DNA of 64,000 bases from an uncultured bacterium (GCA_963699195.1 OY969420.1:29419-93418), one strand, 5' to 3'; positions 25,465 to 53,135 are shown, counted from the first letter of the stretch. Made by a program: numbers and translations. The notes: generated by a model from the sequence alone, not told the origin.

Positions 25465-25541
25465 CGGGGTGTGGCGCAGTTGGCTAGCGCGTACGGCTGG
25501 GGGCCGTGAGGTCGCAGGTTCAAGTCCTGTCACCCCGACCA
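25465..25541 (+). tRNA. tRNA-Pro(GGG)
   Basis: Acceptor CGGGGTG/CACCCCG, anticodon loop CTGGGGG, T-loop TTCAAGT, encoded CCA. Confidence 0.9.
25518..25534 (+). repeat. att-like direct repeat (inside the tRNA-Pro T-arm/acceptor)
   Basis: GTTCAAGTCCTGTCACC. Confidence 0.6.
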
Positions 25542-27115
25542 GATGAGATTTTATGCATTTTGAAGTACGTTTTAAATGGTTCTCGTATCTGGTAATCAAC
25601 AACATTTTGATCGTCTACTGCTACGTTCAAGTATATTAAGCGAGCTATTCTGTCTTTTGCCGCAACATCCGCTGCTTTAAGGTATAAATCTGCGTTTCTT
25701 GTAACGTTCAAGAAGTCTTTGAAGCTCATCATATCCTCTTCAGGGCTTGTGAGTTGCTCTTGGTATGTACCTAGTTTGTTTAGTAAGTTATCTGATTGAA
25801 TATCTAACTCTTTAACACGAGTTTCATTTATTTTATAGATTGTACTTGAGGGATCTAAGTTAACAATCTTTAAGCTTCGGTTTTTAATTTCTTGTTCAAC
25901 ATTCTTTAGCGCACCTTGCGTCGAATGAATCTTAATTGTTAATTCTTGTTGTTTAGTACTATTGATGGAAGATAGCTTATTACAAAGTTGGTCGTAATCT
26001 TTTTGAGAAACCTTTATGTTTTTCAACATATCATACATAAAGTTAAAAATAACTATTGCCCTAACGGATTGGTGTAGTCTAAATTCTTTATTTTTTCTAA
26101 CACAATAAGGATTATCACAACGATAAGATAATATTCGTTTCTTTTCTATTTTACGCCCACTAAGTGGTGTTTGAGGATACATAGTCTTGTTGCAATAAGC
26201 ACAGATGACCATATTTATAAGTGGCTTAAACACTAGTCTTTTACGATCCTTAACAGACCTTCTACCAGATAGGCTTTGAACATAATTATAAGTATCCTCA
26301 TCCGTTGCGGGAGAAAAGTTGTAGTTAGGGAGGTCTCGAAGATCAATGCTCTTACCTTTTTGAATTAATATTCCATAGAAAAAGGGATCATCAAATACTC
26401 TGTCGCTTAGTATTTTGTCACTCATAAAAACCTTCTTGCCAGCTTTCTCGGCTTTGTCTTTGTATACTCGTGCATAGCCTTGTTTGTTCATGTGTGTGGC
26501 TATAGTCTTCAACGATTTACCGTCTTTGCGCATAATCCATGCTTCACTTATTAGTTCGAAGTTTTTGCCATCAGGACGATATATGCCCTCTTCAGTACGA
26601 ATATATCCATGTTTTGGTGTACCAGCCGACTTACCCTCTTTAAGCCCCTTTATTACCCCCCTTGTTACATCCTGTGATAATTTATCTGAATATTGTTTTG
26701 ATAAAACGAAAGCCATACCGAGAAGCATCTTGCCATTAGCGTCTGAGGTAAAGTGATGTGTAACAAACTTCATGTCCTTAATTATATTTTCATCAACCAT
26801 ATCTATAATCTCGCCACCCTCTTTCATATTTCTGGCTAAGCGATCAGGATTCCAAGCTAAGATTGCATCATATTTTTTATCTTGTATACCTTTTAGTATT
26901 TTATTAAATTCTGGTCTTTGATTGGGTTTTTTAGCAGATTTTTTCTCTTGGACTATTGCAGCAATTTTTATACCTAACCTTTTAGCCATAATTCTACATT
27001 CATCTATTTGATGATCTATTGTACGTATTTGTCGCTGAGGATCATCTGTTGATTTACGTGCATATAGAACATATTTCAATTTGGTAATATCTACCCGAGA
27101 GTCATCATCTTCCAT
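25520..27115 (-). CDS. large serine recombinase (integrase)
   Basis: 531 aa. Resolvase-type N-terminus YVLYARKSTDD..Q..ID.Q and WNPDRLARN, a recombinase domain, Cys motifs CAYC..CDNPYC and a coiled-coil C-terminus. The last 22 nt overlap tRNA-Pro antisense. Confidence 0.9.
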   Translation of the reverse strand: MEDDDSRVDITKLKYVLYARKSTDDPQRQIRTIDHQIDECRIMAKRLGIKIAAIVQEKKSAKKPNQRPEFNKILKGIQDKKYDAILAWNPDRLARNMKEGGEIIDMVDENIIKDMKFVTHHFTSDANGKMLLGMAFVLSKQYSDKLSQDVTRGVIKGLKEGKSAGTPKHGYIRTEEGIYRPDGKNFELISEAWIMRKDGKSLKTIATHMNKQGYARVYKDKAEKAGKKVFMSDKILSDRVFDDPFFYGILIQKGKSIDLRDLPNYNFSPATDEDTYNYVQSLSGRRSVKDRKRLVFKPLINMVICAYCNKTMYPQTPLSGRKIEKKRILSYRCDNPYCVRKNKEFRLHQSVRAIVIFNFMYDMLKNIKVSQKDYDQLCNKLSSINSTKQQELTIKIHSTQGALKNVEQEIKNRSLKIVNLDPSSTIYKINETRVKELDIQSDNLLNKLGTYQEQLTSPEEDMMSFKDFLNVTRNADLYLKAADVAAKDRIARLIYLNVAVDDQNVVDYQIREPFKTYFKMHKISSGRGDRT

Positions 27116-27157
27116 GAACTAATTGTACCTCAGTAAAAGAGTTATATTATTCATAGA

Positions 27158-27412
27158 TTATATTTCAATACGACCACCGTTATTATCTGTTATGGTAGTT
27201 TCGTTTAATTTTGCTAAAGGTGAATTTAAATCAATTTTAAGCATCTCGTCAATTAATATGGCTAGATTATCTATACCCTCATCTTCTACAAGTCTATGAG
27301 TTTGCTTATTAGAAAACTTTGGTGGTTCAGTAGGTATTTTATTCTTCATGGCACAGGGCTTCATTAAACCCTTGCCAAATTCAATGTTTGAACATATAAA
27401 AAAAATCGTCAA
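27158..27412 (-). CDS. small hypothetical protein (probable start at Met17, MKPCAMKNK..)
   Basis: Track ORF. Its annotated TTG start is actually the -35-like TTGACG of the repeated 14-mer. Confidence 0.4.
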   Translation of the reverse strand: MTIFFICSNIEFGKGLMKPCAMKNKIPTEPPKFSNKQTHRLVEDEGIDNLAILIDEMLKIDLNSPLAKLNETTITDNNGGRIEI

Positions 27413-27468
27413 GAACTACAAATGTCTAACAGTTTAGAAATGTAAATACTACAATAAATTACAGTTAT

Positions 27469-27963
27469 TTACTCAGTCATTACATAGTCTTCTTCCAAAT
27501 TATCGTCTTTGATTATCTCTCCATTAACATCGACGAGACCATATCCCCTAAGAATATCTCGTATCGGTCGATGCTGACATTGGCTCTTTAAGTCTTGGGA
27601 TGGTTTTCCAATACCTCTATCAAGAATTTCTTTGGCTGCAATAAATCTAATTCGATCATCACAGCTATCTAATAATTGCTCTAATACTTTAACCGCTTTT
27701 ATACTATTAAGTCTTACTACATTAACTGCAGCTTCTTTAGCTTCATCTGATAATTTACTTATATAGTCTTGATAATCATTTTTCCATTCTCTACTGAAGT
27801 ATGTAGCAACAGTTGCATATGGTGCGTCTATTGTCTCAGCAACTTTCTCAAGACATTCACCCCTGTACCTCATATTGAATGCTTCCGTTTTTTTGAGCTG
27901 GTTTGAGACTAGTTGAGGACTACCCATGATTAAGGATATTAGTTTATCGGTTCGAGTCGTCAA
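27469..27963 (-). CDS. HTH/terminase-small-subunit-like DNA-binding protein (probable start MGSPQL at 27927)
   Basis: The promoter TTGACG-16-TAATAT lies 8 nt before the ATG at 27927. The protein is helical with ..AAKEILDRGIGKP... Confidence 0.5.
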   Translation of the reverse strand: MTTRTDKLISLIMGSPQLVSNQLKKTEAFNMRYRGECLEKVAETIDAPYATVATYFSREWKNDYQDYISKLSDEAKEAAVNVVRLNSIKAVKVLEQLLDSCDDRIRFIAAKEILDRGIGKPSQDLKSQCQHRPIRDILRGYGLVDVNGEIIKDDNLEEDYVMTE

Positions 27964-28002
27964 GAACTACATAGCATTTTCATAAAGTGATAGGATAAAT
28001 AA

Positions 28003-28632
28003 ATGAACTACGTCTACATGTTTTTGGGAAGTTTAATTGGAGCTATCATTGGTGGATTCGTAGCTATTACACAAGAAAATTCTAAGATTCCTAACATTGA
28101 AATTTTACCAGGCAAGCCAGCCGACGGAAATGGAAGTCGTAGATTTTTGCATCTAAAGATTACGAATATAAGGCGTGAGAATTTCTGGCAGAAATTTAGA
28201 AAGGGCAATAAACCTGCTTTGCTATGTAAGATACAACTAGAGTTTTTAGACCCTGAAAATAAGACACAGCTTTTTGAAATTCAAGCAAGATGGTCAACTT
28301 CAGCCGAACCATTAACCCTAAGCTCAACTAACTTAAATATTGGCACTTTTGATCCTCGTCAAGCATTTGCTGCAGAAGTCGAAAATATATTAACATCTGA
28401 GAGTAAAGAAATAGACATAGCACTAAAAAACAATAACGAGCAAGGATTCTACGGATTTAATAATTGGAGTTACTTATATAATCACGAAAATCCAGATTGG
28501 CATATCACTTCATCTTCCGTATTGGTAAGAGTAAATTTCTCTTGCGATACTACAAGTACATCTAAATTATTTAGAATCTCCAATCCCAATACCCGAATAA
28601 CTAATTTCAAAATTAAAGAAGTAAAGTCGTAA
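28003..28632 (+). CDS. hypothetical protein with N-terminal TM helix
   Basis: Intact 209-aa ORF. The N-terminus FLGSLIGAIIGGFVAI is hydrophobic. No motif recognised. Confidence 0.5.
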   Translation: MNYVYMFLGSLIGAIIGGFVAITQENSKIPNIEILPGKPADGNGSRRFLHLKITNIRRENFWQKFRKGNKPALLCKIQLEFLDPENKTQLFEIQARWSTSAEPLTLSSTNLNIGTFDPRQAFAAEVENILTSESKEIDIALKNNNEQGFYGFNNWSYLYNHENPDWHITSSSVLVRVNFSCDTTSTSKLFRISNPNTRITNFKIKEVKS

Positions 28633-28653
28633 CTCGCTAGCTTAAATTATTGC

Positions 28654-29724
28654 TTAATTGCTTGGCGTAAATGTTACTTGGCTCATTCCTGAAATTGCTA
28701 CCACGTCACCTTTATAGATCGTAACCGTAAGGCTAGGTACTTCGTCAAGAGACTTATCATTACCTAAAATTTCATCATATGAGCTACTACCAGTAGTCGA
28801 GAAATTACCGCTCTGACCTGAGCCAGGAGTTACAACATATCTTCCAGCAGCTACGTCTTGACCAACGGTAAACGTTCCAGCATATAGGTTAGTAGTCGTC
28901 CGAGTTGTTACAAAGGGTGTTGTTACTGGAGTAAAGGTAACGCTACTCAATCCTGATATTGAGATTTGGTCGCCAGTAGAAATTTGTACACGTATTTTCG
29001 GTACTGCGCTTAATGAACTGTCCGTACCAAGTATCTCGTCATAACTGTCAGTGCCAGAAACACTGAAATTACCGCTCTGACCAGCTCCAGCAGTCACATC
29101 GTATAAACCGTTAGCGACATCTTTACCCCCAGTGAATGTACCCGCTCCTAGCGTTACTGCTGTGCCGGTAACTTGCCTTGTCGCGACTTTAGCTGCTGGC
29201 TTTGCGGTAACTACTGGTGTACTAGGCTTTGTTGAACTTGGTGCTGTACTTGTTATAGAGGTTGTATTTGTCGGTTTACTGTTTCCATTTGCCACTGAAA
29301 TAATTATGATCAGAAATATGATACCGCCAATAATACTCAGTGCCCTATGATCCTTGAACCAGTTATCTGATTGCTTTGTCTTGTGATTTTCCATGTGAGT
29401 ACCTGTATCTTCCTTCCATACGATATTATTAACTGATTTTGTAGCAATCATTATAATGTCGATAATCCATAAGATTCCGAACAAACCAAAGGTAAATAAT
29501 TTTAATATACCCTTACCAACCTTGCCTAAGTAGAACTGATCTATGCCCCATAACCCAAGAAATATAGATAGTAAAAGTGCTGTTAGCCAATTCCTTTGTA
29601 ATACGCCAGTTTTGACTACAGGTGCTGGATTGTGAACATTTACATGTACATCACCAAGTGGATGATGCTCAACATGGCTAATTGTCTTCTTTTTGTTATT
29701 TTCGGATTTTTTAAAGTCATCCAT
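28654..29724 (-). CDS. TM2-domain membrane protein with a duplicated C-terminal beta-rich domain
   Basis: TM2 signature LLSIFLGLWGIDQFYLGKVGKGILKLFTFGLFGILWIIDII. It carries two ~85-aa repeats (GTFTGGKDVANGLYDV..GQSGNFS..SYDEILG..). Confidence 0.7.
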   Translation of the reverse strand: MDDFKKSENNKKKTISHVEHHPLGDVHVNVHNPAPVVKTGVLQRNWLTALLLSIFLGLWGIDQFYLGKVGKGILKLFTFGLFGILWIIDIIMIATKSVNNIVWKEDTGTHMENHKTKQSDNWFKDHRALSIIGGIIFLIIIISVANGNSKPTNTTSITSTAPSSTKPSTPVVTAKPAAKVATRQVTGTAVTLGAGTFTGGKDVANGLYDVTAGAGQSGNFSVSGTDSYDEILGTDSSLSAVPKIRVQISTGDQISISGLSSVTFTPVTTPFVTTRTTTNLYAGTFTVGQDVAAGRYVVTPGSGQSGNFSTTGSSSYDEILGNDKSLDEVPSLTVTIYKGDVVAISGMSQVTFTPSN

Positions 29725-29808
29725 AACATCTCCTAAAAGTCTTATTGGGTTGAATTATGCTACAAGCTGTCTGTAGATGCAAGAACAGCTTAGCGACAAA
29801 CTGTATGT

Positions 29809-30030
29809 ATGACATCTGAACAAAAGTTTTTAACAAGTTTCGGAAACCGATTATCTTCTATTCGAAAACAAAAAGGAATTACTCAAGAGAGACTCGCCGA
29901 CTTAGTAGAAGTTCATAGGACTTACATTGGATTTATAGAACAAGGTAAGCGAAATCCAAGCATTTCTAATATAAATAAAATCACGAAGGCTCTCGGTATT
30001 TCACTAGAAGTATTCTTTAAAGACTTGTGA
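29809..30030 (+). CDS. XRE-family HTH transcriptional regulator
   Basis: 73 aa: LSSIRKQKGITQERLADLVEVHRTYIGFIEQGKRNPSISNINKITKALGISL. Confidence 0.85.
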   Translation: MTSEQKFLTSFGNRLSSIRKQKGITQERLADLVEVHRTYIGFIEQGKRNPSISNINKITKALGISLEVFFKDL

Positions 30031-30071
30031 TAACTTCTGTTTGATATTATAAATACTAACTTATCTTATTC

Positions 30072-30968
30072 TCAAGTAGAACGAATTGTCTCCCACTCTT
30101 TCTTCCAATTTGTTTTTGGATTTGCTTCAAGTTTTTCAATTAAATCAAAAAGATTAGATATATCTTTACCAACATCCCTCCAATATTGGTCAGAAGTATG
30201 ATTCCTCAGATTTTCGATGAGTAGGTCTGAGTACTCCTTAGCTTTAACTAGCTCAGCTTCTGCAGCAGGGTTTCCTGAATAATCAACCGTAAATAAGCGC
30301 GTAACTAGGTTCATATATACTGCAAGAATAAATAAGAAGTTGTTAGTAACTAATCCAATCATGTTTTTGTCGAGCTTATAAATTAGCGTAATAGGCTTTG
30401 GGTCGGTTTTATCCTGATTGTCTTTAAGGCTATCAAGAACTCCTACCCAGTTTCCATGATAGAACATAGACATGATGCTATATTTTGTCCACTTTAGTTT
30501 TAAGTCTTGGTTAATAAAGTTCGTTATATTTAACTTAGGTAAACCTTTTTCGTGAACAAGTGCGTTATAGGGTTTATCAGGGTAACAGGATATGTACAAT
30601 ATTCTTACGAAAGTCTCATATGCACTCCTTAATAAAATAATGCTGTCCTCATAAAAACCGCTACACAGTAACGTATAGGCAGAGTAAATAGGCTTTAGGG
30701 CATGTACCGTTGCGCTGTATTGAACGGCACGGTGAGTTGGCCAATGACTTCTCTTAATGTAGTTCTGATGATGCGTATGCATGGTTATCGATGAAAAATA
30801 CATTTCAAATTGGCTCATAAAACGACCATAACTTTTATCCATGTATGCTTGATGCTTTACTTGATATTCTCGAATGTCAGAAACAACTTTTATATCAGCT
30901 TGATTTGTAAGTTCATCTAATCGATTACGAAGTTTGTCTGACATATTTTTCCTTACTTTATCGTTCAT
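30072..30968 (-). CDS. hypothetical helical protein (possibly DUF5677/Abi-like)
   Basis: Intact 298-aa ORF. The segment AYTLLCSGFYEDSIILLRSAYETFVRILY resembles the helix pair of DUF5677/AbiV-type proteins, judged from memory only. Confidence 0.4.
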   Translation of the reverse strand: MNDKVRKNMSDKLRNRLDELTNQADIKVVSDIREYQVKHQAYMDKSYGRFMSQFEMYFSSITMHTHHQNYIKRSHWPTHRAVQYSATVHALKPIYSAYTLLCSGFYEDSIILLRSAYETFVRILYISCYPDKPYNALVHEKGLPKLNITNFINQDLKLKWTKYSIMSMFYHGNWVGVLDSLKDNQDKTDPKPITLIYKLDKNMIGLVTNNFLFILAVYMNLVTRLFTVDYSGNPAAEAELVKAKEYSDLLIENLRNHTSDQYWRDVGKDISNLFDLIEKLEANPKTNWKKEWETIRST

Positions 30969-31067
30969 GTAAACATTCTACTCGCTGACAGTTTATATAT
31001 ACTAGTATCAGCTACCCATTTATATTCAACGTGCTGCTTTGATGTATTTATACAGTATAGAAGTACT

Positions 31068-31421
31068 CTAAGCGTGGAAGCCAATCGTTGGTTTATCCCC
31101 TGATGAGGTGTTCAATTCAAAGTATGTGAGTAAGCTATCGAGTTTAGTTTTAAGATATCCCAGCTTCAAGTTAGTATTACCCGTGGCTGCTGTTTCATGG
31201 GTCATGTAATTAATTTCAGTCGTCTCAGAACCAAGCATTGAATGCGGTATTCTAAACTCTTCAACATCAATCCCAATCGAACTAAGCGCATCAAGCTGCT
31301 TTCCGTAAATCTCGGCAGTATCTATATCAACTGTATTATTTGGGTGTTCATTCGGAAGATTTCCCTTAAGCGAAAGTAAGCTAGCATATGCACGTTTCAA
31401 AACATCTTGTTGGTCTGACAT
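31068..31421 (-). CDS. hypothetical protein
   Basis: Intact 117-aa ORF upstream of, and co-oriented with, the 298-aa gene. A -10-like TATTAT lies 6 nt before the ATG. Confidence 0.45.
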   Translation of the reverse strand: MSDQQDVLKRAYASLLSLKGNLPNEHPNNTVDIDTAEIYGKQLDALSSIGIDVEEFRIPHSMLGSETTEINYMTHETAATGNTNLKLGYLKTKLDSLLTYFELNTSSGDKPTIGFHA

Positions 31422-31464
31422 GCGTTTATAATATCATTGACAGATATATGCTCAGAGTAGATTC

Positions 31465-31481
31465 GTTCAAGTCATGTCACC
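31465..31481 (+). repeat. att-like direct repeat (decayed tRNA-Pro 3' fragment)
   Basis: GTTCAAGTCATGTCACC. The next 7 nt, TTTATCA, compare with CCGACCA in the tRNA, and all differences are GC to AT. Confidence 0.55.
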
Positions 31482-31506
31482 TTTATCAACTGAGTCACGT
31501 GCTTCA

Positions 31507-31830
31507 TATCTGTTACAGTTCGTATGCAGCTTGACTATATTCTGCTATAGCTATGCGGGTGTTATCAATCAAGCCCCTATCGTTACTATAATCCCAGTAT
31601 GTTTTTAGGGATTTTAGTAGAGTTTCTAGTCGTTCAAGATTAATCGCTCCTACTCGACCATTAAGAATTTCAGTAGCTTTTAGGGCAATTTAAAAATCGG
31701 CCCGGTCACCTTTTATAACCTGAGAGAACCCAGGTGGGTGTTCGCACACGTTAACCATGGCTAACGATGGATATTGAACTCCCGATATAAAATTATTCAG
31801 ATTAATTTGGTATACCCGGCCGATCTACCC
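31507..31830 (-). CDS. hypothetical protein, interrupted
   Basis: Shifted frames read MVNVCEHPPGFSQVIKGDRADF / KIALKATEILNGRVGAINLERLETLLKSLKTYWDYSNDRGLIDN... Confidence 0.25.
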
Positions 31831-35302: not shown

Positions 35303-37157
35303 TTAAAGAGTAGTTTTGCCGACTCGATCTTTTGCTTCACTGGCAACTTTATCTAAGAACTCGTCTGCTTTATATGACCGTTGATTATCTCCGGCTCCCA
35401 AATCACCCCTTATTCTAGGAGTTAGATCACCCGATGCTATCTCTTTGTCGCCTAGCACTAGAGTATATGGTACTTTCATTAGTTCAGAGTTACGAATCTT
35501 CTTACCAACGGATTCATTTGAGTTATCTATGAACACTCTTAGACCGTGACTCTTTGCTTTCTTATATAACTCATTGGCATAGTTAATCGTTGGTTCTTCT
35601 TGATTAACAGTTATGAGTCTAATCTGTTCTGGGGCCAACCATACCGGGAATTTGCCGGCAAAATGTTCGATAAGTAGCATAATAAATCTCTCAAACGACC
35701 CCAATATTGCCCGGTGAATCATCACAGGTGTCTGCTCGTCACTGTTCTGGTCTATGTAAGTGAGACCAAATCGTTTAGGCATAGCAAAGTCTAGCTGGAC
35801 AGTGGCAAGTTGTGTCTCCCGACCAAGTGCATCCTTAAACATAAAGTCCAACTTTGGTCCGTATAGCGCGGCTTCACCTTCCATTCGTTTTGCATTCAGC
35901 TCGTATTTATCACTTATTTTGCTGAGCATATCTTCTGCTTTATCCCAGTCAGAAGGTTCACCAATATATTTATCTGGACTTTTAGGGTCCCTAACGGATA
36001 GAGACACCCAGTGCTCACCCCATAGACCAATGTTCTCATAGAACTGTTTGATTGCTTCTACTATAACTCCTGCCTCGTCTTGAATTTGGTCTACTCGACA
36101 AAATGTGTGTCCATCATCAACCGTAAAACCACGAGTTCTTTGTAATCCGCCGATTTGACCTGGCTTTTCATCACGATATTGCATTGTTTGCTCTATATAT
36201 CTCAGAGGTAGGTCTCGATAGCTTCGAGGCCTGGAGGCATATATCTGTGTATGATGAGGACAGTTAACTGGCTTTAGGATAAACTCTTGGTCATAATGGC
36301 TCTCTACGTGGAATAATTCCTCTTCGAACTTGGCTGCGTGACCAGATATCTCATACAGTTCTAGTTTTGCTAGATGCGGAATCGATACCATCTGCATATC
36401 ATGCTTCTGACTAATCTCTTTAAGAGCATTCTTTAACTCCTCTATAAGCACTGTTCCCCTGGGCGTATACATAGGTAAACCCGGGCCAACTAGATCTGAG
36501 AAAACAAATAGATCTAATTCTTGCCCAATTTTACGGTGATCCTATTTCTTAGCTTCCTCGAGATAAGCTCAAGTGCTCTATCTAACTCCTGTTCGTTTCT
36601 AAAAGCTACCCCATATATTCTTTGCATTTGGGCATTATCAGCCTTTCCACGCCAGTAAGCTCCTGATACTCGAAGTAGTTTGAATGGTCCGACCTCACCT
36701 GTTGATTTAACATGTGGCCCTCGGCATAGATCCGTAAAGTCCCCATTCTTATAGAAAGATACACTTTCAACTTTTGTATCATTGGTCAGCTGGTCAAGCC
36801 AAGTTCTTTAGCATCTATTTCACTAGCTAGAGTTGTACCTGATCGTTTTAGATCATTTAGTAGTTCTAGTTTATAGGGCTGATTTGCTTCATTGGCCCAT
36901 TTAATTGCCTCGTCTATAGGCAGATCATATTGCTCAAAGGTCTGATTTTCGGCGATTATCTTCTTCATCTCATCTGTTATTTCACCAAATTCTCTTCAGA
37001 TAAGCTTATCTTCACCTAGATCAATATCATAATAAAAGCCATCATCAACTGCTGGGCCGACACCAAATTTAGCATCTGGCCACTTTCTTTTAATGGCTGA
37101 GGCCATTATATGGGCCAAACTGTGTCTCATTGGTTCTAAATTGCTTTTATCATCCAT
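35303..37157 (-). CDS. thrS: threonine--tRNA ligase (N-terminal third frameshifted)
   Basis: The 389-aa intact C-terminal ORF holds the class II core and anticodon domain ([29 protein letters not shown]). N-terminal fragments read [19 protein letters not shown]... Confidence 0.9.
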
Positions 37158-45593: not shown

Positions 45594-45650
45594 TTTAAAG
45601 AGCTTACACTCATATTAGCATAAGCTTTACGATTTGTCAATATAATGGCT
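45594..45650 (-). repeat. 57-nt promoter repeat, copy 1
   Basis: 56/57 identical to 46595-46651. Confidence 0.8.
45612..45640 (-). promoter_or_regulatory. promoter TTGACA-17-TAATAT
   Basis: Part of the 57-nt repeat at 45594-45650. Confidence 0.6.
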
Positions 45651-45680
45651 GTAAGTTACTTTTGTATTTTGGAACTTTTA

Positions 45681-46226
45681 TTAATTTTCAGGTTCATGAA
45701 TTAGATGAGATAAATTACTCAAATCTGAACCAAGTTTCTTTGTAGAGGTTCCTTTTAAAGTCTTGCTCGAGGTTGTTACAAATTGTTTGAGTGACTCTAT
45801 TGTCCTAGTCCAATGATATAGATTAAATACTCTCGTAGGCACCTCAATAGCTGGTCTATCACCATCATTTAACCTTACCTTTTTAACTACTGCTGCTTCC
45901 CCTCCGTCTATGCACCAAGCTGGAACATTTGTGCCTTGATGAGTAGCAAATGCCATCAATACACCCTTTTCATCACCCTCTTTCATTAGACTTTCAAATT
46001 CTTGCCAGGCTGGGTCTAAGTAACCCTGTGCTAAGTTAGTTTCTGCCCCTGTTACTACCATTTGTAATTGTTCTCTGTCACTATCTGATAGATCAAAATC
46101 TCTTCCAAATAGAGCACCCGGCTCTAGGGCTTTTTGTGTGATTTGGCCAAGTCTCACCCTATCCAACTGACCTGCTGTTGAAAGTTCTGGAACATTTAAA
46201 TCGGGTTGTTCGGGAGTATTTGTCAT
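45681..46226 (-). CDS. hypothetical protein
   Basis: Intact 181-aa ORF. Confidence 0.5.
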   Translation of the reverse strand: MTNTPEQPDLNVPELSTAGQLDRVRLGQITQKALEPGALFGRDFDLSDSDREQLQMVVTGAETNLAQGYLDPAWQEFESLMKEGDEKGVLMAFATHQGTNVPAWCIDGGEAAVVKKVRLNDGDRPAIEVPTRVFNLYHWTRTIESLKQFVTTSSKTLKGTSTKKLGSDLSNLSHLIHEPEN

Positions 46227-46244
46227 TTGAATTTTTACTATGTT

Positions 46245-46574
46245 TTAAGACTCAGGTCGGCTCAGCATAGCCCCTAGTGCATCTGCTTCAGCTTGTCGGC
46301 GCAATAGCTCATGTGTCAATATCATTGTTCTATGAAGAGCTCTAATAGCATTATGGTCTGGATTTGGGCCCAGCATAGAGACTGCCAATACACCAACATT
46401 ATTGTATACTTCAGGATTATTAACCTGTAACCTTTCGTCTGCTTGGCCTATTACAGCATTGATCCCCTGTTCTTGAATATCGGCAAATATTGATTCTATG
46501 GTTACGCCAGACACTCTGGGAAGTTGATAGTCAGTAGGATTTTGAAATTCTGGTTTTTTATCTTTATCTGTCAT
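46245..46574 (-). CDS. hypothetical protein
   Basis: Intact 109-aa ORF. Confidence 0.5.
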   Translation of the reverse strand: MTDKDKKPEFQNPTDYQLPRVSGVTIESIFADIQEQGINAVIGQADERLQVNNPEVYNNVGVLAVSMLGPNPDHNAIRALHRTMILTHELLRRQAEADALGAMLSRPES

Positions 46575-46594
46575 TTTTTATCTTTATATTTTAA

Positions 46595-46651
46595 TTTAAA
46601 GAGCTTACACTCATATTAGCATAAGCTTTACTATTTGTCAATATAATGGCT
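46595..46651 (-). repeat. 57-nt promoter repeat, copy 2
   Basis: 56/57 identical to 45594-45650. Confidence 0.8.
46613..46641 (-). promoter_or_regulatory. promoter TTGACA-17-TAATAT
   Basis: Exact hexamers and spacing. Confidence 0.6.
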
Positions 46652-46686
46652 AGCAGAAGCTTTAGAATTGTGGAACAATTTTACTA

Positions 46687-47337
46687 TTAAGAACTCTCCG
46701 TATTCTTTGCTACACACCTTAGAATACTAGACTCTTGGCCATTATAAACTTCATCTATAACATCAAGGTGTTCAATTTGGAATAACCCGCTTAGCAATGT
46801 CCTAGTGTATGGCTTTGAAAACAGATGTCTCACATGTCCGCTATCGGATACGAAAATGTCTTTTTCTACTTCTTTCCCGTTACCAAGTTCTAGATTTTCA
46901 ACTGACTTGCATGCAAAAACTAGCAGTCCACCTACTTTTAAAACTTCTTTGATGTTTTTAACTATTCTTTTAGTGTCGTTATGACTGTAGTAGTGGAGGG
47001 AGAGATTGGCGAACACAACATCAAAACTATTGTCTGGGTAAGGTAGTACATTACGCATGTCGAGTACATCAAACTCTATCCCGCTGTCAGCAAGATATCG
47101 CCGGTCCTGTTCAATAACGACTTCGGAAGCATCCGTTGCAATTACGATGTGTCCGCGTCTGGTAAAAAACTCAGCGTCTCGGCCTACGCCACATCCAAGC
47201 TCAAGTACTTGTGAGTTATCAGCAAAATATTGCTCGGCAAGTTCGGCTAATGGACTAGGTTGGTTCCGCAATTTTTCATGGGCACCAGCTGCATGTTTAG
47301 CATCCCATACTGGTATTTGGTCTGGTATAGAAGACAT
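46687..47337 (-). CDS. class I SAM-dependent methyltransferase
   Basis: Motif I VLELGCGVGRD, post-I IATDASE, FDVVFAN. Confidence 0.8.
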   Translation of the reverse strand: MSSIPDQIPVWDAKHAAGAHEKLRNQPSPLAELAEQYFADNSQVLELGCGVGRDAEFFTRRGHIVIATDASEVVIEQDRRYLADSGIEFDVLDMRNVLPYPDNSFDVVFANLSLHYYSHNDTKRIVKNIKEVLKVGGLLVFACKSVENLELGNGKEVEKDIFVSDSGHVRHLFSKPYTRTLLSGLFQIEHLDVIDEVYNGQESSILRCVAKNTESS

Positions 47338-47351
47338 ATATATACCCTACC

Positions 47352-47375
47352 AAAAAAACACTTCTTAACGAAGTG
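47352..47375 (-). terminator. intrinsic terminator after the MazG-like gene
   Basis: CACTTC-GTTAA-GAAGTG followed by TTTTTTT on the minus strand. Confidence 0.6.
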
Positions 47376-47380
47376 CTTAC

Positions 47381-47417
47381 GCCTGGCAGGCCGTAGCACT
47401 GGAAGTCTGGAGCTATT
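47381..47417 (-). repeat. conserved island-B box, copy 1
   Basis: Minus strand AATAGCTCCAGACTTCCAGTGCTACGGCCTGCCAGGC. Its TAG is the stop codon of the upstream ORF. Confidence 0.7.
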
Positions 47418-48240
47418 TCTGCGCAGAGGGTGCTTCGGGATCAATAAATAAAGCTTTGAGTGCCTGGTCTTGATTTACATATTCATACGTAGCATTTACT
47501 ACCCATGGGCTTAGACGTTCCCTGCCCGAAGACGTACTTTGTCTTTGTTGGGCTTCGTCAACAACATGGGGGATTCGTGCACGATTCGCTAGCTTGTTTA
47601 AGGTATTTTCAATGCAGTTAGTCAAAAGTAGTCCTGTTTTATTTGCAATTATTCCCACATGCACAAGTAAATCGCTCAAGGTCTTGGACAAATCAGGCCT
47701 TTCAACTCCAATTCCTACCCATAAACCATCAGTCTTAGGGTTCAGTACATCAACAACCCTTAAAGTGGCTATAGCAAGTGATTCGAAGAGTTTATCATCT
47801 TCATCTGGCTTTATGGGGTTCCCATCAGGATCAAATATTGGGGTGAGTCCATCTAGAGCAGTTGGGTCAATAGCATAATCTTCCAGTAGGACTGGTGTAC
47901 CTGCGCTATCAGGCGGAGTAGGTTCAATATTTTTAAAACGAGCGATTTCCGATATATACCAAAGAACATCGCCAAGCTCCCCCTCAACTGCAACCGTGTC
48001 AGCAAGGTGATTGTCTGAGTAAAATGTAGCGGACTCTAAGAATTCAAAAGACTCTTCTAGTAACCCTTTCCTTAGCAGCAACTCTGGATCTGGGTAGTCT
48101 TCGTATTGAGCAAATACAGAAGTCATTCCGTATAGTTGACCCAAGCTAAGCTGAGGTGATTTTTCAAAAGGATTTGCCGTATTAGTGACTGTCTGCGAAG
48201 TGTCATTTAACGGATTCTCAGGCGTTGAAGTCATAAACAA
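47413..48240 (-). CDS. MazG-like nucleoside-triphosphate pyrophosphohydrolase (likely start MTSTPE at 48234)
   Basis: EESFEFLES .. EGELGDVLWYISEIA (ExxE..ExxD pattern). Confidence 0.6.
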   Translation of the reverse strand: MFMTSTPENPLNDTSQTVTNTANPFEKSPQLSLGQLYGMTSVFAQYEDYPDPELLLRKGLLEESFEFLESATFYSDNHLADTVAVEGELGDVLWYISEIARFKNIEPTPPDSAGTPVLLEDYAIDPTALDGLTPIFDPDGNPIKPDEDDKLFESLAIATLRVVDVLNPKTDGLWVGIGVERPDLSKTLSDLLVHVGIIANKTGLLLTNCIENTLNKLANRARIPHVVDEAQQRQSTSSGRERLSPWVVNATYEYVNQDQALKALFIDPEAPSAQK

Positions 48241-48280
48241 AAAAATACCATGGAAATACTATTTTGAAAAATGCTTACAC

Positions 48281-48317
48281 TTGACGGGCCGTAGCAATAG
48301 GAGTCTGGAACTACTAT
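48281..48317 (-). repeat. conserved island-B box, copy 2
   Basis: Minus strand ATAGTAGTTCCAGACTCCTATTGCTACGGCCCGTCAA. Confidence 0.7.
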
Positions 48318-49045
48318 TGTGGTGGCAAGTCAGAGAAATATTGGCCGGTTTTACGGATAAGCTCCGCTACTGGATTTTGAGCGAAAGCGAAAGGAGGAGA
48401 CAGCAGATCATTGAACCCTTCAAAGCCCACTTCGTTACTTACATTTGAGCCGAGAGGGGGAGTAATAATTTTGGTCTGATCGGCAATAATAAATGTTCCT
48501 AAGGGCATAGTCACCTGACCCCTTTTATTTAGCCCTACGCATGTTCGTTGCTCGATTGTGCCGGTTTTTAAATGGCCGATGGCTGGCTGCAGATGGTGCC
48601 AACTTAACCAGCCCAATTGTTCATTGTCCTGACTCGAGGTTCTAAAAGAACCCAAGCTACCGTGACCTACGAATGCCAATGAAGATACATCAGGGTCAGC
48701 AATAGTCTTGAGCACCTCTTGAGTCGAGGGGTCCTCTAGCAATAGGACTCTTTCGCAACCACGTAATGCTGTCTCGCGTTCGGCCACCTGAAGAGCATGG
48801 ACTTGGGCCGTTTCGTAATCTTTACCAGATTTTTGTTCACCCGCGTTAACCAAGATTGCAAACGAACCTCTCGCATCATCTACACCCAATCGTGAGGCAG
48901 CAAGCATTTCGGCGTGATTGGTGTGCTGTTTGAGCAAAACGGGTATACGGGTGTTAATTTTTCCTGATCTGCCCATAAAAATCCTTTCAGCGATAATCAA
49001 AATCAATTTAAAACAAAAAATACCATAAATATAGTATTTGGTCAA
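48314..49045 (-). CDS. hypothetical protein; possible minimal caspase/CHAT-like fold (likely start MGRSGK at 48976)
   Basis: LAFVGHGS followed ~40 aa later by IEQRTCVG (a His..Cys dyad pattern). This is speculative. Confidence 0.4.
   Translation of the reverse strand: MTKYYIYGIFCFKLILIIAERIFMGRSGKINTRIPVLLKQHTNHAEMLAASRLGVDDARGSFAILVNAGEQKSGKDYETAQVHALQVAERETALRGCERVLLLEDPSTQEVLKTIADPDVSSLAFVGHGSLGSFRTSSQDNEQLGWLSWHHLQPAIGHLKTGTIEQRTCVGLNKRGQVTMPLGTFIIADQTKIITPPLGSNVSNEVGFEGFNDLLSPPFAFAQNPVAELIRKTGQYFSDLPPQ
49017..49045 (-). promoter_or_regulatory. promoter TTGACC-17-TATTTT
   Basis: Lies directly 3' of box copy 3. Confidence 0.45.
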
Positions 49046-49056
49046 GCATATGTGTA

Positions 49057-49090
49057 ATGGCGGTTGTGGCTTTCCAGATTTGGAGCTATT
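49057..49090 (-). repeat. conserved island-B box, copy 3
   Basis: Minus strand AATAGCTCCAAATCTGGAAAGCCACAACCGCCAT. Confidence 0.6.
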
Positions 49091-49093
49091 TTA

Positions 49094-49348
49094 CTACTTT
49101 GGAGCCTCAAATATAGCCAAAGCAGCTAATTGACGTGTTTTAGCAGCCTCAACCTGCTCAGGAAAATCAGGACTAGATGTTCTCATATCTACATAATGTT
49201 CAGTGGCCATGCGTATTTCACCCGCCAATGATTCTTGATCAATTATTTGAAGACCACCTAGCTCAAATAATTGTTCGCCAGATAATCTAACGGTAACTGG
49301 TCGACCTGATTGCTTTACAAGTTTGTCTTGCGAGTCCGGAGTTGTCAT
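49094..49348 (-). CDS. ribbon-helix-helix (CopG/Arc-like) DNA-binding protein
   Basis: RPVTVRLSGEQLFEL..SLAGEIRMATEHYV fits the RHH beta-strand plus two-helix pattern. Confidence 0.5.
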   Translation of the reverse strand: MTTPDSQDKLVKQSGRPVTVRLSGEQLFELGGLQIIDQESLAGEIRMATEHYVDMRTSSPDFPEQVEAAKTRQLAALAIFEAPK

Positions 49349-49355
49349 ATTTTAA

Positions 49356-49384
49356 ACATTAACATCTTATTGGCATTTTGTCAA
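49356..49384 (-). promoter_or_regulatory. promoter TTGACA-17-TAATGT (leaderless-type)
   Basis: Only 7 nt lie between the -10 and the ATG at 49348. Confidence 0.6.
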
Positions 49385-49385
49385 T

Positions 49386-49420
49386 GTAGCGGGCTGTAGC
49401 TTTAGAAGTCTGGAACTATT
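49386..49420 (-). repeat. conserved island-B box, copy 4
   Basis: Minus strand AATAGTTCCAGACTTCTAAAGCTACAGCCCGCTAC. It abuts the -35. Confidence 0.7.
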
Positions 49421-49464
49421 TTGCTATAAATAACCTGCTAATCACTTAGTTTGCTAATTGTTAG

Positions 49465-49947: not shown

Positions 49948-49971
49948 TTTTTGTTTTTACTTTACATAAAA

Positions 49972-50000: not shown

Positions 50001-50004
50001 TTAC

Positions 50005-50040
50005 ATGGCGGGCCGTAGTGCAAGATATCTGGAACTACTT
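50005..50040 (-). repeat. conserved island-B box, copy 5
   Basis: Minus strand AAGTAGTTCCAGATATCTTGCACTACGGCCCGCCAT. Confidence 0.7.
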
Positions 50041-50142
50041 TAGCACCCAAGCGTCTGATATCTACTACCCTAAAATAGAAAACCGCCCAAGTTATGAGCG
50101 ATTATCTACACTTAAATTATCTTAAATATCTAAACTTTTAAC

Positions 50143-50601
50143 CTATTGCTTTGGTTGCTCAATGTTAATATGTACACCTTGAGCTTCAGCTTCTTGAATG
50201 GCTTGCTCATGATATTCACCTTGATGAGCAGTATAGTGGGCAGCACTAGTTTCTAAAGTGCTGTCATATGCACCCTGTGCTTGACTCTCGTTAATCTTTG
50301 CAACGTCTGCGGCATTTTGAGCCTTAGATTTTATGACTGCGGGAGCGTATTGTTCAGGAACATCAGTACCACCACCATACGGGTGACTCAATATGTCGTC
50401 TCTCCTACTAAAACGATAGTTAGGGTCATGTAGGTTACGAGTAGCTTCGTCCAACTTTTGTTCTGCTGCTTGGCTTTGATTTTGTCGCCATTCTAGCGTT
50501 TCACTATCTTGTTTGTGTTGTTTGTATAGGCTTTCTGCTTCAGAAGATAATTCGTGATTCATAATGTTACTTATACTAGCATAAGCTGTATGTTTTGTCA
50601 A
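50143..50601 (-). CDS. hypothetical hydrophilic protein (likely start MNHELS at 50562)
   Basis: The first 13 codons of the track ORF are the promoter TTGACA-17-TAGTAT itself. Confidence 0.5.
   Translation of the reverse strand: MTKHTAYASISNIMNHELSSEAESLYKQHKQDSETLEWRQNQSQAAEQKLDEATRNLHDPNYRFSRRDDILSHPYGGGTDVPEQYAPAVIKSKAQNAADVAKINESQAQGAYDSTLETSAAHYTAHQGEYHEQAIQEAEAQGVHINIEQPKQ
50573..50601 (-). promoter_or_regulatory. promoter TTGACA-17-TAGTAT (leaderless-type)
   Basis: 10 nt lie between the -10 and the ATG at 50562. It shares TAGCATAAGCT with the 57-nt repeat promoters. Confidence 0.6.
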
Positions 50602-50642
50602 CTTGACTTTTCATAGGTTATATTTTACATCACAATAATTAT

Positions 50643-51077
50643 ATGAGTTCAAAACTAAAACAATCAGGAAGACCAACCGTCCTTACTAAGCCAACTGTCT
50701 TGAAATTGGAACAAGCCCTGAAAGACGGTTTTAGCATTGAAATGGCTTGTTATGTATCTGATATTAGCCGTAGCACCTACTACGCCAATTTACAGACAGA
50801 TACGGACTTTATGAACAAAATGGAACTGGCTCAGTCATGGGCTACAGAACGTGCAAAACAAGTTGTTATCCAAGCTATTGATAAAGGCAACCTAAAAGCG
50901 GCTCAGTGGTGGCTAGAACGCAAGCTAAGAGCAGAATTCAGTCTTAACGCACCAACATTTGCTCAAGGTAACGGTGATAGCGACTTCGTAGACCAGTATT
51001 TTGACGGTAATCAGAATAAGTTCTTAGACTTTATGTCGCATACCATTGAAGCTATGCGAGAGCCTAGTAAATCGTAG
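50643..51077 (+). CDS. HTH DNA-binding protein (terminase-small-subunit/homeodomain-like)
   Basis: 144 aa: GRPTVLTKPTVLKLEQALKDGFSIEMACYVSDISRSTYY..AAQWWLERK. Confidence 0.55.
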   Translation: MSSKLKQSGRPTVLTKPTVLKLEQALKDGFSIEMACYVSDISRSTYYANLQTDTDFMNKMELAQSWATERAKQVVIQAIDKGNLKAAQWWLERKLRAEFSLNAPTFAQGNGDSDFVDQYFDGNQNKFLDFMSHTIEAMREPSKS

Positions 51078-51285
51078 TAAATAATATATCAAAATATATT
51101 TGCAAAGCACCATAGTAAGTATTACCATGAGCATAATATTTGGTGAGAGCTGGACACAGCTACTAAAACAAATAGGTTCGTTAGGTTAGTTGGGAGATAG
51201 AACAATAGGTCTAGTTAGTACGTTAACAGCAGCAGTTCTATTATCGTCCACGCAGATTGCAACATAAGAAACCTGCTCTTAATGT

Positions 51286-51552
51286 GTGCAGCAATCAACC
51301 GACACACCAGTTACAAAACTATTACCAGCCCATGCCACGCCTGAGCCTGGTTCAGTTCAACGTGGTCAATCTAAGTCCTTTGCAGACTTGCAACCAGGTC
51401 TTGAAAACATACATAAAATTAACGACCTGAACCCTGAGCAACAGAACCTATTTAACTTTCTCAAGTTAGTGGTTGATATTAAGTATCGCCATAAATATGG
51501 TGAGAAAATTGAGCAAAATAGTGGTAAAGGATATAGTACCTATGATGATTGA
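51286..51552 (+). CDS. small hypothetical protein upstream of the recombinase (possible directionality factor)
   Basis: 88-aa track ORF with a GTG start. No motif recognised. Confidence 0.3.
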   Translation: MQQSTDTPVTKLLPAHATPEPGSVQRGQSKSFADLQPGLENIHKINDLNPEQQNLFNFLKLVVDIKYRHKYGEKIEQNSGKGYSTYDD

Positions 51553-53101
51553 TATCCCAATACCAAAATCAAAATGTTACGTTTACTTACGCCGTTCTCA
51601 AGACCGAGATGACAGACAAGCACTTAGTTTGGATAAACAAGACCAGCAGGTTAAGCGAATTATTTCTGACAATAAGTTCTCTCCAATATACTTACCTGCC
51701 GAAGAACGTTCTGCTAAATATCCTGGTCGCCCTATTTTTGGTGATATGGTAAAAGGCATTGAAAATGGTGAAGCCCGCTATATAGCTGTTTGGCATATTT
51801 CTAGACTTAGCAGAAACCCAATAGATGGCGGTCAGATAATTTACCTACTGGATACAGGTAAGCTACTAGCAATTTATACACCTAATCGTGTTTACAGAAA
51901 CACACCAGATGATAAGGCATTTTTAGCCATTGAGCTTGCCTTTGCTAAGAAAAATAATGACGATTTAAGTGAGCAGGTTAAAGAAAGCTACGTTGTTAAG
52001 CGTCAACGTGGTGAGTATCCTGGCCCCGCTTTTTTGGGGTACATCAACATTATCGTTAGACCAGGTGTCCGCAATATCGCACCATGTCCAGAAGAAGGCC
52101 CCAAACTTTATGATGTATTTGTTTACGCTGCTACAGGTATGTACACGCTAGACGAAGTATGGAAGTACGCTCAAGACAGAGGGCTTAAATCACCAACTAA
52201 CCCTAACAACCTAATTGCTAAAACCACCTTAGAAAATGGGTTAAAAAGACGAGATTACACTGGTGTTTTCAAAAGAGGCGGTGCTGAATGGATACAAGGT
52301 AGTTACGAACCCCTAATATCAGTTGATTTATATGACAGAGTTCAAGCAGCTATGGGTTGGGCAAAACAACACAAAAACTACTCAACTAAAGGTGCTTTTT
52401 ATGCCTATAAAGGTGTCCCCCGTTGTGGAACTTGTAGCATGAATATTACTGCCTATACCAAGCCTAAAGTGCTTGCGACTACAGGTGAATTAGCAAGTTA
52501 CACTTTTTACGTCTGTACCAAAAAGAGTAAAACCATTAAGTGTAAAGAACCACAGCTTGCTGAACATGAGTTTACTGGCGTTATTAAAGACGAGATGTCC
52601 AACTATGAGATAACCGAAGCAGACGGCGAAGTGTGCAAGTTACTGGTTCATAACGTCTACGATGATTACATGAAAAGCCAGGACATATACAATGATGTCT
52701 GGAAGCATGACTTAAGACAGGCGGAGAAGGCTCTAGATGTTCTAGACGATAAATTAGAGCATGGTGTCATTACTGATGACCGCTACCAGCTTAGAGCAGC
52801 TAAACATCAAAGTATGGTGGTTAGAACTACCAAACTTCTTAACGGTTCTTCACAAGACGCCGAACGCTGGTTAGAACTATGTAATGAAACCTTTTCAGGT
52901 ATAACCAACATTGGCGAAGTATTTGAACTAGCAAATGATGAAGAACGCCGTCAGTTAATGCTGTATTTAGGTACGAACTGGACTTTAAGCAACAAAAAAG
53001 TGGCTCTAACAGCTAGAGAACCACTTAATATGCTACATAAAAATACCCGTAAATCGGATTGGCGGGCTCGACCGGATTTGAACCGGCGATCTCCTCCGTG
53101 A
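51473..53101 (+). CDS. large serine recombinase (integrase); likely start MMIDIP at 51542
   Basis: YVYLRRSQDRDDRQ..SLDKQ, VWHISRLSRN, Cys motifs CGTC..C..C. The last ~42 nt are antisense to the tRNA-Asp 3' half. Confidence 0.9.
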   Translation: MILSIAINMVRKLSKIVVKDIVPMMIDIPIPKSKCYVYLRRSQDRDDRQALSLDKQDQQVKRIISDNKFSPIYLPAEERSAKYPGRPIFGDMVKGIENGEARYIAVWHISRLSRNPIDGGQIIYLLDTGKLLAIYTPNRVYRNTPDDKAFLAIELAFAKKNNDDLSEQVKESYVVKRQRGEYPGPAFLGYINIIVRPGVRNIAPCPEEGPKLYDVFVYAATGMYTLDEVWKYAQDRGLKSPTNPNNLIAKTTLENGLKRRDYTGVFKRGGAEWIQGSYEPLISVDLYDRVQAAMGWAKQHKNYSTKGAFYAYKGVPRCGTCSMNITAYTKPKVLATTGELASYTFYVCTKKSKTIKCKEPQLAEHEFTGVIKDEMSNYEITEADGEVCKLLVHNVYDDYMKSQDIYNDVWKHDLRQAEKALDVLDDKLEHGVITDDRYQLRAAKHQSMVVRTTKLLNGSSQDAERWLELCNETFSGITNIGEVFELANDEERRQLMLYLGTNWTLSNKKVALTAREPLNMLHKNTRKSDWRARPDLNRRSPP

Positions 53102-53135
53102 CAGGGAGGCGTGATAACCACTTCACTACGAGCCC
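53060..53135 (-). tRNA. tRNA-Asp(GUC)
   Basis: Acceptor GGGCTCG/CGAGCCC, anticodon loop CTGTCAC, T-loop TTCAAAT, encoded CCA. Confidence 0.9.

Follow-up and report, generated by a model that had tools for sequence, protein, structure and literature searches.

The DNA analyzed in this work is a 64,000-nt stretch of the genome of an uncultured bacterium of the Saccharibacteria (GCA_963699195.1 OY969420.1:29419-93418), hereafter the window, to whose positions all the coordinates refer; it harbors two tRNA genes, on each of which the gene of a large serine recombinase (LSR) converges and ends inside the tRNA gene. The first is a tRNA-Pro(GGG) gene on the plus strand (25465-25541; 60 bits in Rfam), the host target of recombinase A, whose 3' acceptor and T-arm represent the B half-site of the host attachment site (attB). 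The minus-strand open reading frame (ORF) of recombinase A (25520-27115, 531 amino acids in its integrated, tail-swapped form) overlaps it for 22 nt in antisense and terminates with KISSGRGDRT, the final four codons and the stop (GDRT, stop) being host tRNA antisense. The second is a tRNA-Asp(GTC) gene on the minus strand (53060-53135; 70 bits), the host target of recombinase B, whose plus-strand ORF (51473-53101, also in its integrated form) overlaps it for 42 nt and ends with SDWRARPDLNRRSPP (in short, WRARPDLNRRSPP); the codons past SDWR(A) are host tRNA antisense, and the TGA stop falls in the anticodon loop. Recombinase B has 542 amino acids from its first TTG and about 526 by the starts of its homologs, on which basis translation probably begins near 51521. 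Both tRNA genes were called intact by ARAGORN and Rfam; domains were assigned with Pfam and phage families with PHROG.

Both ORFs match the resolvase catalytic domain PF00239 (1.5e-22 in A, 1.3e-15 in B) in combination with the Recombinase and/or Zn_ribbon_recom domains, the PF07508 and PF13408 matches being weak in recombinase A and clearer in its homologs. Residues R20 and S22 (YARKS) are invariant in alignments of 21 and 45 sequences, and four cysteines (C305, C308, C333, and C338) are invariant or conserved. The initial annotation had described the two ORFs as LSRs that end in antisense inside the tRNA genes, and both statements hold; the stops do lie inside the tRNA genes. Despite the frameshifts present in the assembly, each of the two ORFs agrees with its homologs up to the final codon. 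The two recombinases share only 27% identity over 184 amino acids of the catalytic domain, so that they belong to two different LSR families, both common in Saccharibacteria.

The overlap is not restricted to the window. We inspected the C-termini of the best 120 homologs of each recombinase (for recombinase B, 45-94% identical and labeled mostly Saccharibacteria or Patescibacteria): 94 of the 120 homologs of B end with WRARPD[SL]NRRS[SP]P, that is, the antisense of the 3' half of tRNA-Asp, and five more are truncated inside this motif, while 99 of the 120 homologs of A end in tRNA-antisense codons (for example, GRGDRT, SRGAGN, or GRGERTRTFDL). The survey of genomes for LSR ORFs overlapping tRNA genes gave the same picture. 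Among 80 A-family loci from metagenomes, 75 of which hold a complete ORF, a convergent tRNA gene is overlapped by 52 of the complete ORFs, over 11-77 nt (48 loci with tRNA-Pro, all three anticodons being represented, and 4 with tRNA-Leu), and about six further ORFs cross the whole tRNA gene or hit the contig end; the relatives of recombinase B lie at tRNA-Asp (L004, L010, L012, L014-L016, L119, and L122) and, in one case, at tRNA-Met. The length of the overlap is set only by the first stop in the tRNA antisense: a TTCAAGT T-loop gives an early stop (ACT TGA), and with TTCGAGT the ORF continues. To judge from these counts, the overlap of the integrase ORF with the tRNA gene is not due to chance.

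A minority of homologs possesses a longer tail, and the point at which these diverge from the others falls exactly at the tRNA 3' end (the last 6-8 nt). In the A family the long form reads SGR-VGAINLEQLDxLLxSLKTYW...AYEL and spans 570-577 amino acids; in the B family it reads WRA-VTSEVWNYF and spans 534-543. In both, the extension past the tRNA end is in frame and 25-46 codons long. The contig encoding the A-family long form P0131 (L001) is 5,695 bp long with a 30-nt terminal overlap, corresponding to a circle of 5,665 bp, and the two contigs encoding the long form P0055 (L002 and L003) are circular permutations, 100% identical, of a 5,729-bp circle. The tRNA gene is absent from all of these circular contigs; therefore, at least in them, the long form is the unintegrated state.

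Some other family members (P0086 at L123:11510-11530, L026-L029, and L056) show neither a tRNA gene nor the typical P' tail at the recombinase end. They are found in large contigs of chromosomal DNA, a context suggestive of decayed copies or of integration at secondary sites other than tRNA genes. For P0086, whose gene is a chromosomal long form, we considered an integrase parted from its tRNA by an inserted cassette, an idea that was rejected because the site is a non-tRNA one.

The two states of the integrase gene can be related to each other through the ends of the islands. Island A extends from 25542 to 31660 (6.1 kb) and contains the integrase, an 84-amino-acid ORF, a helix-turn-helix (HTH) protein similar to small terminase subunits, and five cargo ORFs. 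Its core, CGACCA, in which the crossover would lie, forms the final 6 nt of tRNA-Pro where the island meets the tRNA (P-core-B, 25536-25541); nothing else is shared by this junction and the far one (P'-core-B', 31655-31660), where the island ends on the right and the host flank begins at 31661. The tRNA-side junction reads GTCACCC-CGACCA-GATGAGATTTTATGC and the far one GCTCCTACT-CGACCA-TTAAGAATTTCAG. Just inside the latter, on the minus strand (31513-31653), lies the 3' end displaced from the recombinase A gene, 46 intact codons plus stop (VGAINLERLETLLKSLKTYWDYSNDRGLIDNTRIAIAEYSQAAYEL), found by tblastn with the long-form tails (E 5e-15) at a distance of 6.1 kb from the break point; its first nine or so codons coincide with the P' half-site, and the same remnant was found in more than 20 other A-type islands. 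Joining the two ends of the island yields an attachment site of the element (attP; on the integrase strand, AAAATCTCATC-TGGTCG-AGTAGGAGCG) within an integrase that reads KMHKISSGR/VGAINLE across the junction, has about 577 amino acids, and is collinear with the 570-577-amino-acid long forms, while the reconstructed attB consists of the intact tRNA-Pro followed by TTAAGAATT. In 35 A-type loci the P' copy occurs exactly once per locus, 2.6-9.5 kb from the integrase stop, a distance that gives the size of each island.

At tRNA-Asp the core is TGGCGGGC (53060-53067), the complement of the last 8 nt of the tRNA (GCCCGCCA). It recurs at 50006, where it opens a core plus P' half-site on the plus strand (TGGCGGGC CGTAGTGCAAGATATC TGGAACTAC; 50006-50039) marking the distal end of the element; this is the sole copy in the window whose core still equals the tRNA junction. 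The core is followed there by CGTAGTGCAAGATATCTGGAACTAC, translated WRAVVQDIWNYF, which resembles the long-form tails, and the attP reconstructed for B is AAATCGGAT-TGGCGGGC-CGTAGTGCAAG. A different Saccharimonadales genome (L004/L012) harbors a 3.1-kb island that is 88% identical to that of the window over the HTH gene, an 88-amino-acid ORF, the integrase, and the tRNA, with host flanks only 67-71% identical, and its single distal site matches 50006-50039 at 34 of 34 nt. Therefore, the intact island B corresponds to 50006-53067, at least 3.06 kb, with an older array of similar sites on its left.

The organization of the half-sites is that of an LSR system. In A-type islands the tRNA arm consists of GTCG, 12 nt, and TTGAAC (the latter in the T-loop), and the P' arm of GTCG, 17 nt, and TTGAAC; when both junctions were compared in 15 independent A-type islands, the distance between the core and TTGAAC in the P' arm exceeded that of the tRNA by exactly 5 bp in every one. 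It is known that in LSR systems the motif bound by the zinc-ribbon domain lies 5 bp nearer to the crossover in attB than in attP (Rutherford et al., PMC3783163), and by this rule the P' arm is a mimic of the tRNA T-arm in the attP register. Since the host-side B' arms at the A-type junctions are unrelated among hosts, attB seems to be recognized mainly through its tRNA half.

On the whole, we consider it highly probable that the window contains two independent, very small integrative elements, each with the attP of an LSR inside the integrase ORF, and that the crossover at the tRNA end swaps the C-terminal tail of the enzyme for tRNA-antisense codons. According to this model, attP would lie, in the free circle, in the 3' part of the integrase ORF, with integrase coding sequence as its left (P) arm, a core identical to the final 6-8 nt of the tRNA that is targeted, and a right (P') arm encoding the start of the C-terminal tail. 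The tRNA acceptor and T-arm would serve as one half-site of attB, which the P' arm would mimic with TTGAAC 5 bp further out. As the crossover would take place in the core, at the very 3' end of the tRNA, the latter would need no element-borne copy to stay intact; the integrase ORF would be cut and would read into the host tRNA antisense up to a chance stop, so that the length of the overlap would depend only on the tRNA sequence, and the original tail-coding segment would be moved to the opposite end of the island. The tail-swapped enzyme might still be active for excision, as all the LSR domains are retained. Indeed, in the AlphaFold2 model of the long form P0131 (mean pLDDT 79.8) all these domains end before residue ~520, with long helices at 371-454, and the break point (SGR/V) falls in a low-pLDDT linker (521-533) that is followed by a tail helix (533-551, modeled with moderate confidence) and by a disordered end; since the domains end before the break point in this model, the integrated enzymes would keep every known domain.

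The conservation of the tail itself differs between the two families. In family A the first nine codons show a low synonymous divergence (pS 0.21), which suggests a constraint at the DNA level, and codons 10-24 combine a pN/pS of 0.27 with nearly saturated synonymous sites, which suggests a constraint at the protein level; codons 25-40 are under essentially no constraint (0.82), and the tail ends with a conserved YEL/YEY. This tail thus looks like a functional peptide present only in the enzyme of the free element, where it might modulate directionality or stability, so that its loss might have a regulatory effect. The family-B tail is conserved only where it coincides with the DNA site (EVWNYF = TGGAAC); for this reason, its swap may be neutral. 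One might also suppose that the overlap is an incidental read-through, that is, that the integrase gene merely lies beside the island end, with the attachment site downstream of a complete gene and no protein lost. Clearly, there is no selection on the overlapping codons as protein, the overlap varies between 11 and 77 nt with the first chance stop, and the family-B free-form tail, conserved only along the DNA site, would fit this idea as well; however, the long forms of both families extend in frame from the exact tRNA end, and the family-A tail shows the constraint on codons 10-24, the conserved YEL/YEY, and a remnant intact in more than 20 islands, so that we regard a mere read-through as unlikely. 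The in-frame long tails and the selection on the family-A tail place, therefore, the attP core inside the free-form ORF. The position of the attachment core within the integrase gene had been proposed in the initial annotation and is borne out by these tails and by the displaced one at 31513-31653; two further proposals made there, that the functional tRNA 3' end is provided by the element and that this behavior is typical of tyrosine integrases, are not supported. As for the first, no displaced tRNA fragment of at least 10 nt exists elsewhere in the window (search with 10-mers and a pattern search allowing three mismatches), the island ends share 6 bp only in A and 8 bp only in B, and the divergence of the long forms falls at the last 6-8 nt, so that the overlapped T-arm and acceptor bases are host DNA read in antisense, of which at most the shared 6 bp, in A, could derive from the element. 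As for the second, an identity of a few base pairs and a 5-bp shift of the outer motif are standard for LSRs. A tyrosine-type integration, with a copy of the tRNA 3' half (22-42 nt) in attP, a deep crossover, and the gene restored by the element copy, might be evoked by the 22- and 42-nt overlaps and by the tRNA targeting typical of such islands (PMC4383910), but it is very improbable given the lack of a displaced fragment, the 6-8 bp shared by the junctions, the free and long forms devoid of tRNA-like sequence past the core except for the shifted TTGAAC, and the serine nature of both enzymes.

Some observations weigh against the integration model that we favor. The empty attB and the circular junction of islands A and B were not recovered, and their boundaries come from reconstruction and from relatives: a look-up of the empty sites through the flanking host proteins gave no record for one and, for the other, a 3.5-kb contig ending before the tRNA genes, and an exact search of viral contigs for the predicted attP junctions gave no match. 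The motif offset for sites of the recombinase B type is 6 rather than 5 bp with the anchor chosen, and the P arm has no clear symmetry. Moreover, the long form is not always a free circle, as some long-form genes belong to large chromosomal contigs or occupy sites other than tRNA genes (L042 and L123); that of L042 is embedded in a 24-kb contig with STAND NTPases, an insertion sequence element, RecD2, and methylases. Lastly, the assembly carries frameshifts in other, housekeeping genes, though not in the two integrase ORFs as far as their agreement with the homologs tells.

The region on the left of island B deserves a separate discussion. Six further core plus P' copies, increasingly degenerate, are arrayed there on the plus strand (45646-49425; repeat family D3, with nhmmer E values of 1e-7 to 1e-10 for most), which brings the core plus P' sites of the window to 6-7. 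They are located at 49387, 49058, 48282, 47384, 46647, and 45646, and their cores are progressively mutated leftward (TAGCGGGC, TGGCGGTT, TGACGGGC, TGGCAGGC, TGGCTAGC, and TGGCTGTA). Each copy is embedded between minus-strand genes, one or two cargo genes apiece (MazG-like, S-adenosylmethionine methyltransferase, and unknowns), and abuts either a minus-strand promoter-like sequence (TTGACA-N17-TAnnAT) or a terminator-like hairpin with GTGCTTAYGCY. The repeated site shows the two-block conservation typical of a protein-binding duplex half-site and forms no strong hairpin, and its profile found no match in 1.05 Mb of unrelated control loci. Other loci of the B family contain one copy (L004, L012, L016, and L122) or two (L010 and L117); the free circle (L003) has three, one of them within the integrase ORF. 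The richest locus is L119 (JGI Ga0556752_000007, 1036-7960), in which a recombinase B relative at tRNA-Asp is preceded by 13 copies; almost all their cores are perfect, and nearly all neighboring small genes have a copy between them. No homology connects the cassette proteins, either within an element or across elements, so that the arrays did not originate by duplication. The homologs of the MazG-like cassette protein (34-41% identity) reside in ordinary chromosomal contexts, with an unconvincing 8.8-bit site match.

One of the copies in L119, at 7764, is associated instead with 16 nt of the tRNA-Asp 3' end.

How such arrays were assembled can be explained in at least two ways. The repeated sites might be the scars of successive integrations at tRNA-Asp, with the newest, integrase-bearing element beside the tRNA and integrase-less remnants outward, a scenario whose chances we put slightly short of even. 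The decay of the copies of the window with their distance from the tRNA, the perfect core being found at 50006 only, is in agreement with this idea, as are the different copy numbers among relatives (from one in L004 and two in L010 and L117 to 13 in L119), the unrelated cassette genes, which exclude duplication, and the unrelated B' arms, because of which any sequence joined to a core and a tRNA might act again as attB. If this were so, on the other hand, one has to account for units of only 0.3-1.1 kb, none with an integrase remnant, for the 13 nearly perfect cores kept in L119, and for a free 5.7-kb circle that already possesses three copies; furthermore, hybrid sites are not used as attB by canonical LSRs. 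A tandem accretion of this kind is known for SCCmec and the pseudo-SCC elements (SCC, staphylococcal cassette chromosome), in which the LSRs CcrAB or CcrC act at the 3' end of rlmH without inactivating it and recombinase-less cassettes of several kb are arranged in tandem, bounded by a short repeat. In architecture the B-family loci match this arrangement, as an LSR sits at a conserved gene's 3' end and is accompanied by repeat-bounded, recombinase-less units; the differences are in the multi-kb cassettes and the protein-gene target of SCC as opposed to the single-gene units, the tRNA-Asp target, and the full P'-type half-site found here.

The second explanation, which we advance only tentatively and hold to be rather doubtful, is that the tRNA-Asp LSR family works as an integron-like cassette system with serine chemistry, in which individual genes, equipped with a promoter of their own and one core-P' half-site each, would be captured, stacked (up to at least 12), and moved together with a 3-kb integrase module, the integrase C-terminus being rewritten at each event since the site lies inside the ORF. 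Such an active exchange is favored by the 13 intact sites of L119 and by the three of the free circle. Like integrons, these loci have a recombinase gene beside the array, one site per single-gene cassette, and a variable, non-homologous content; unlike them, they rely on an LSR and on double-strand half-sites rather than on a tyrosine recombinase (IntI, with attI) and folded single-stranded attC sites, they show promoter-like sequences in each cassette where integron cassettes are mostly promoterless, and the platform itself would be mobile, at the tRNA.

In every respect tested, the system described here is an LSR integration system, and what is new is the tRNA target, the position of attP, and the half-site-bounded cassette arrays of family B. 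Indeed, the enzymes share with the phage LSRs (the Listeria A118/LI integrase, Bxb1, and phiC31) the resolvase, recombinase, and zinc-ribbon domains with a coiled coil, the short attachment sites with a few base pairs in common, and the outer zinc-ribbon motif nearer to the center in attB; they differ in that the target is a tRNA 3' end and not a protein-coding gene, that attP is inside the integrase ORF so that the C-terminus is altered on integration, and that the carriers are elements of 3-9 kb in bacteria of the candidate phyla radiation (CPR). Among the IMG/VR viral contigs only relatives at no more than 30% identity were found; therefore, the elements are not recognized phages. In the integration-dependent immunity of the mycobacteriophages BPs and Brujita, which use a tyrosine integrase, attP is located within the repressor gene, and integration alters the C-terminus of the repressor and, hence, its activity or stability. 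The likeness consists in an attP inside a gene of the element whose product changes its C-terminus on integration; here the affected gene would be that of the serine integrase itself, with a regulatory consequence that is hypothesized.

Two systems that use tRNA genes are also worth comparing. The "suicidal" tyrosine integrases of the SSV1 type, carried by archaeal viruses and plasmids and reported in a 2021 review as exclusive to Archaea, have the site of recombination inside the gene that encodes them, target a tRNA, and are partitioned on integration (PMC8371274), three features that are shared by the LSRs of the window; those enzymes, however, are archaeal tyrosine recombinases split into non-functional parts, whereas here the enzyme is serine and bacterial and would exchange only a tail past the known domains. 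Islander-type islands, known from tRNA and tmRNA genes, likewise insert on the gene's 3' side and leave the tRNA functional, but they do so with a tRNA fragment and a displaced long direct repeat in place of a 6-8-bp repeat and a serine recombinase, and no Phage_integrase domain was found in either island of the window with Pfam. The paper describing them states that serine integrases are not known to target tRNA genes (PMC4383910), in line with the view, already put forward for this DNA, that such a target is unusual for LSRs. In a survey of Prochlorococcus, an LSR was reported instead of a tyrosine recombinase in 27 of 937 tRNA-island elements, without further analysis, and in the LSR attachment-site survey of Durrant et al. 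the targets are classed by protein-coding gene and tRNA is never mentioned. In our search of the literature, no paper turned up that describes an LSR whose attP is intragenic, and none that describes LSR families targeting tRNA genes in CPR bacteria.

If the model is correct, the long-standing generalization that tRNA genes are targets of tyrosine integrases only would be removed, and LSRs would have a route of their own to a tRNA gene without a copy of it, through a crossover in its last bases and the use of the acceptor and T-arm as a half-site of attB. The two families would represent a bacterial, serine counterpart of the archaeal self-splitting integrases, with a benign split that affects the tail only, and the idea of the tail as a sensor of the integration state is directly testable in this system. 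The loci provide, moreover, dozens of natural LSR/attP/attB sets with a highly conserved tRNA as attB, useful for integration tools that need no landing pad, and, by means of the half-site-bounded arrays of single genes, CPR bacteria may accumulate cargo in their tiny genomes in a manner not described before.

Regarding the other genes of the two islands, a small conserved ORF accompanies each integrase. That of island A (84 amino acids, 27158-27412, minus strand) lies directly upstream of recombinase A and has a counterpart in the circle L001 (60% identity over 35 amino acids); that of island B (88 amino acids, 51286-51552, plus strand) overlaps the start of recombinase B and was retrieved by tblastn in L002/3, L004, L009, L010, L016, L117, L119, and L122. 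Both are candidate recombination directionality factors, and the former might alternatively be a regulator. The HTH gene is located, in island A, at 27469-27963 (minus strand; weak match to a PHROG terminase small subunit, with a Terminase_2-like gene in L001) and, in island B, at 50643-51077 (plus strand; PHROG_4102, 3.9e-16; DUF5681-like in relatives); in both islands it is part of a conserved module, in B that of the integrase. A gene of this kind occurs near the integrase in every element of both families (also L001:5142-5570 and L003:2203-2553), without other phage genes; it is reminiscent of the phage satellites that redirect the packaging of a helper, or it may be an excisionase-like factor. 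The cargo of island A (28003-31421; Pfam) comprises a 209-amino-acid ORF, a TM2-domain protein, an XRE HTH protein, a DUF5677 protein, and a 117-amino-acid ORF.

Directly on the right of tRNA-Asp, and on the opposite strand, there are a tRNA-Thr and a tRNA-Gly gene (53218-53378); in L004 (1298-1463), L012, and L122 they lie about 10 kb to the left and on the same strand, a shift that implies, on this comparison, a probable rearrangement around the tRNA-Asp integration hotspot.

The two junctions do face each other across 27.6 kb, as noted in the initial annotation, but the mirror-image arrangement has no meaning of its own: two unrelated small islands are separated by housekeeping genes, and they face each other by coincidence, solely because of the way in which the two tRNA genes are oriented. 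The genes in between code for an M50 peptidase, a metallo-beta-lactamase-fold protein, MiaA, an MGMT-like protein, threonyl-tRNA synthetase (ThrRS), tRNA-Val, and a glycosyltransferase, and the MiaA-MGMT-ThrRS-tRNA-Val synteny is kept in the relative L117. In the same region, a match to GGTTCAAATC at 40931 was considered as a tRNA remnant and rejected, being a lone 10-mer in an AT-rich spacer. The ThrRS gene (35303-37150, minus strand) is broken, the N-terminal two-thirds being spread over three frames with in-frame stops, and is either a pseudogene or affected by assembly indels, its counterpart in L117 being intact (616 amino acids); the family-2 glycosyltransferase (38474-39962, minus strand) is likewise divided into three ORFs (282, 101, and 99 amino acids) as opposed to a single 544-amino-acid ORF in L117, owing to a frameshift or to pseudogenization. 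Just upstream of an RNase H/RVT_3-like gene and of tRNA-Pro there is a class A RNase P RNA (24299-24650, minus strand, 254 bits), and the plus-strand ORF 24425-24688 lying over it is spurious. Lastly, the rRNA operon has the order 16S, tRNA-Ile, tRNA-Ala, 23S, and 5S, and its 23S rRNA match (7132-10491, minus strand) is 3,360 nt long versus the 2,925 positions of the model, with one or more insertions of about 430 nt in total.

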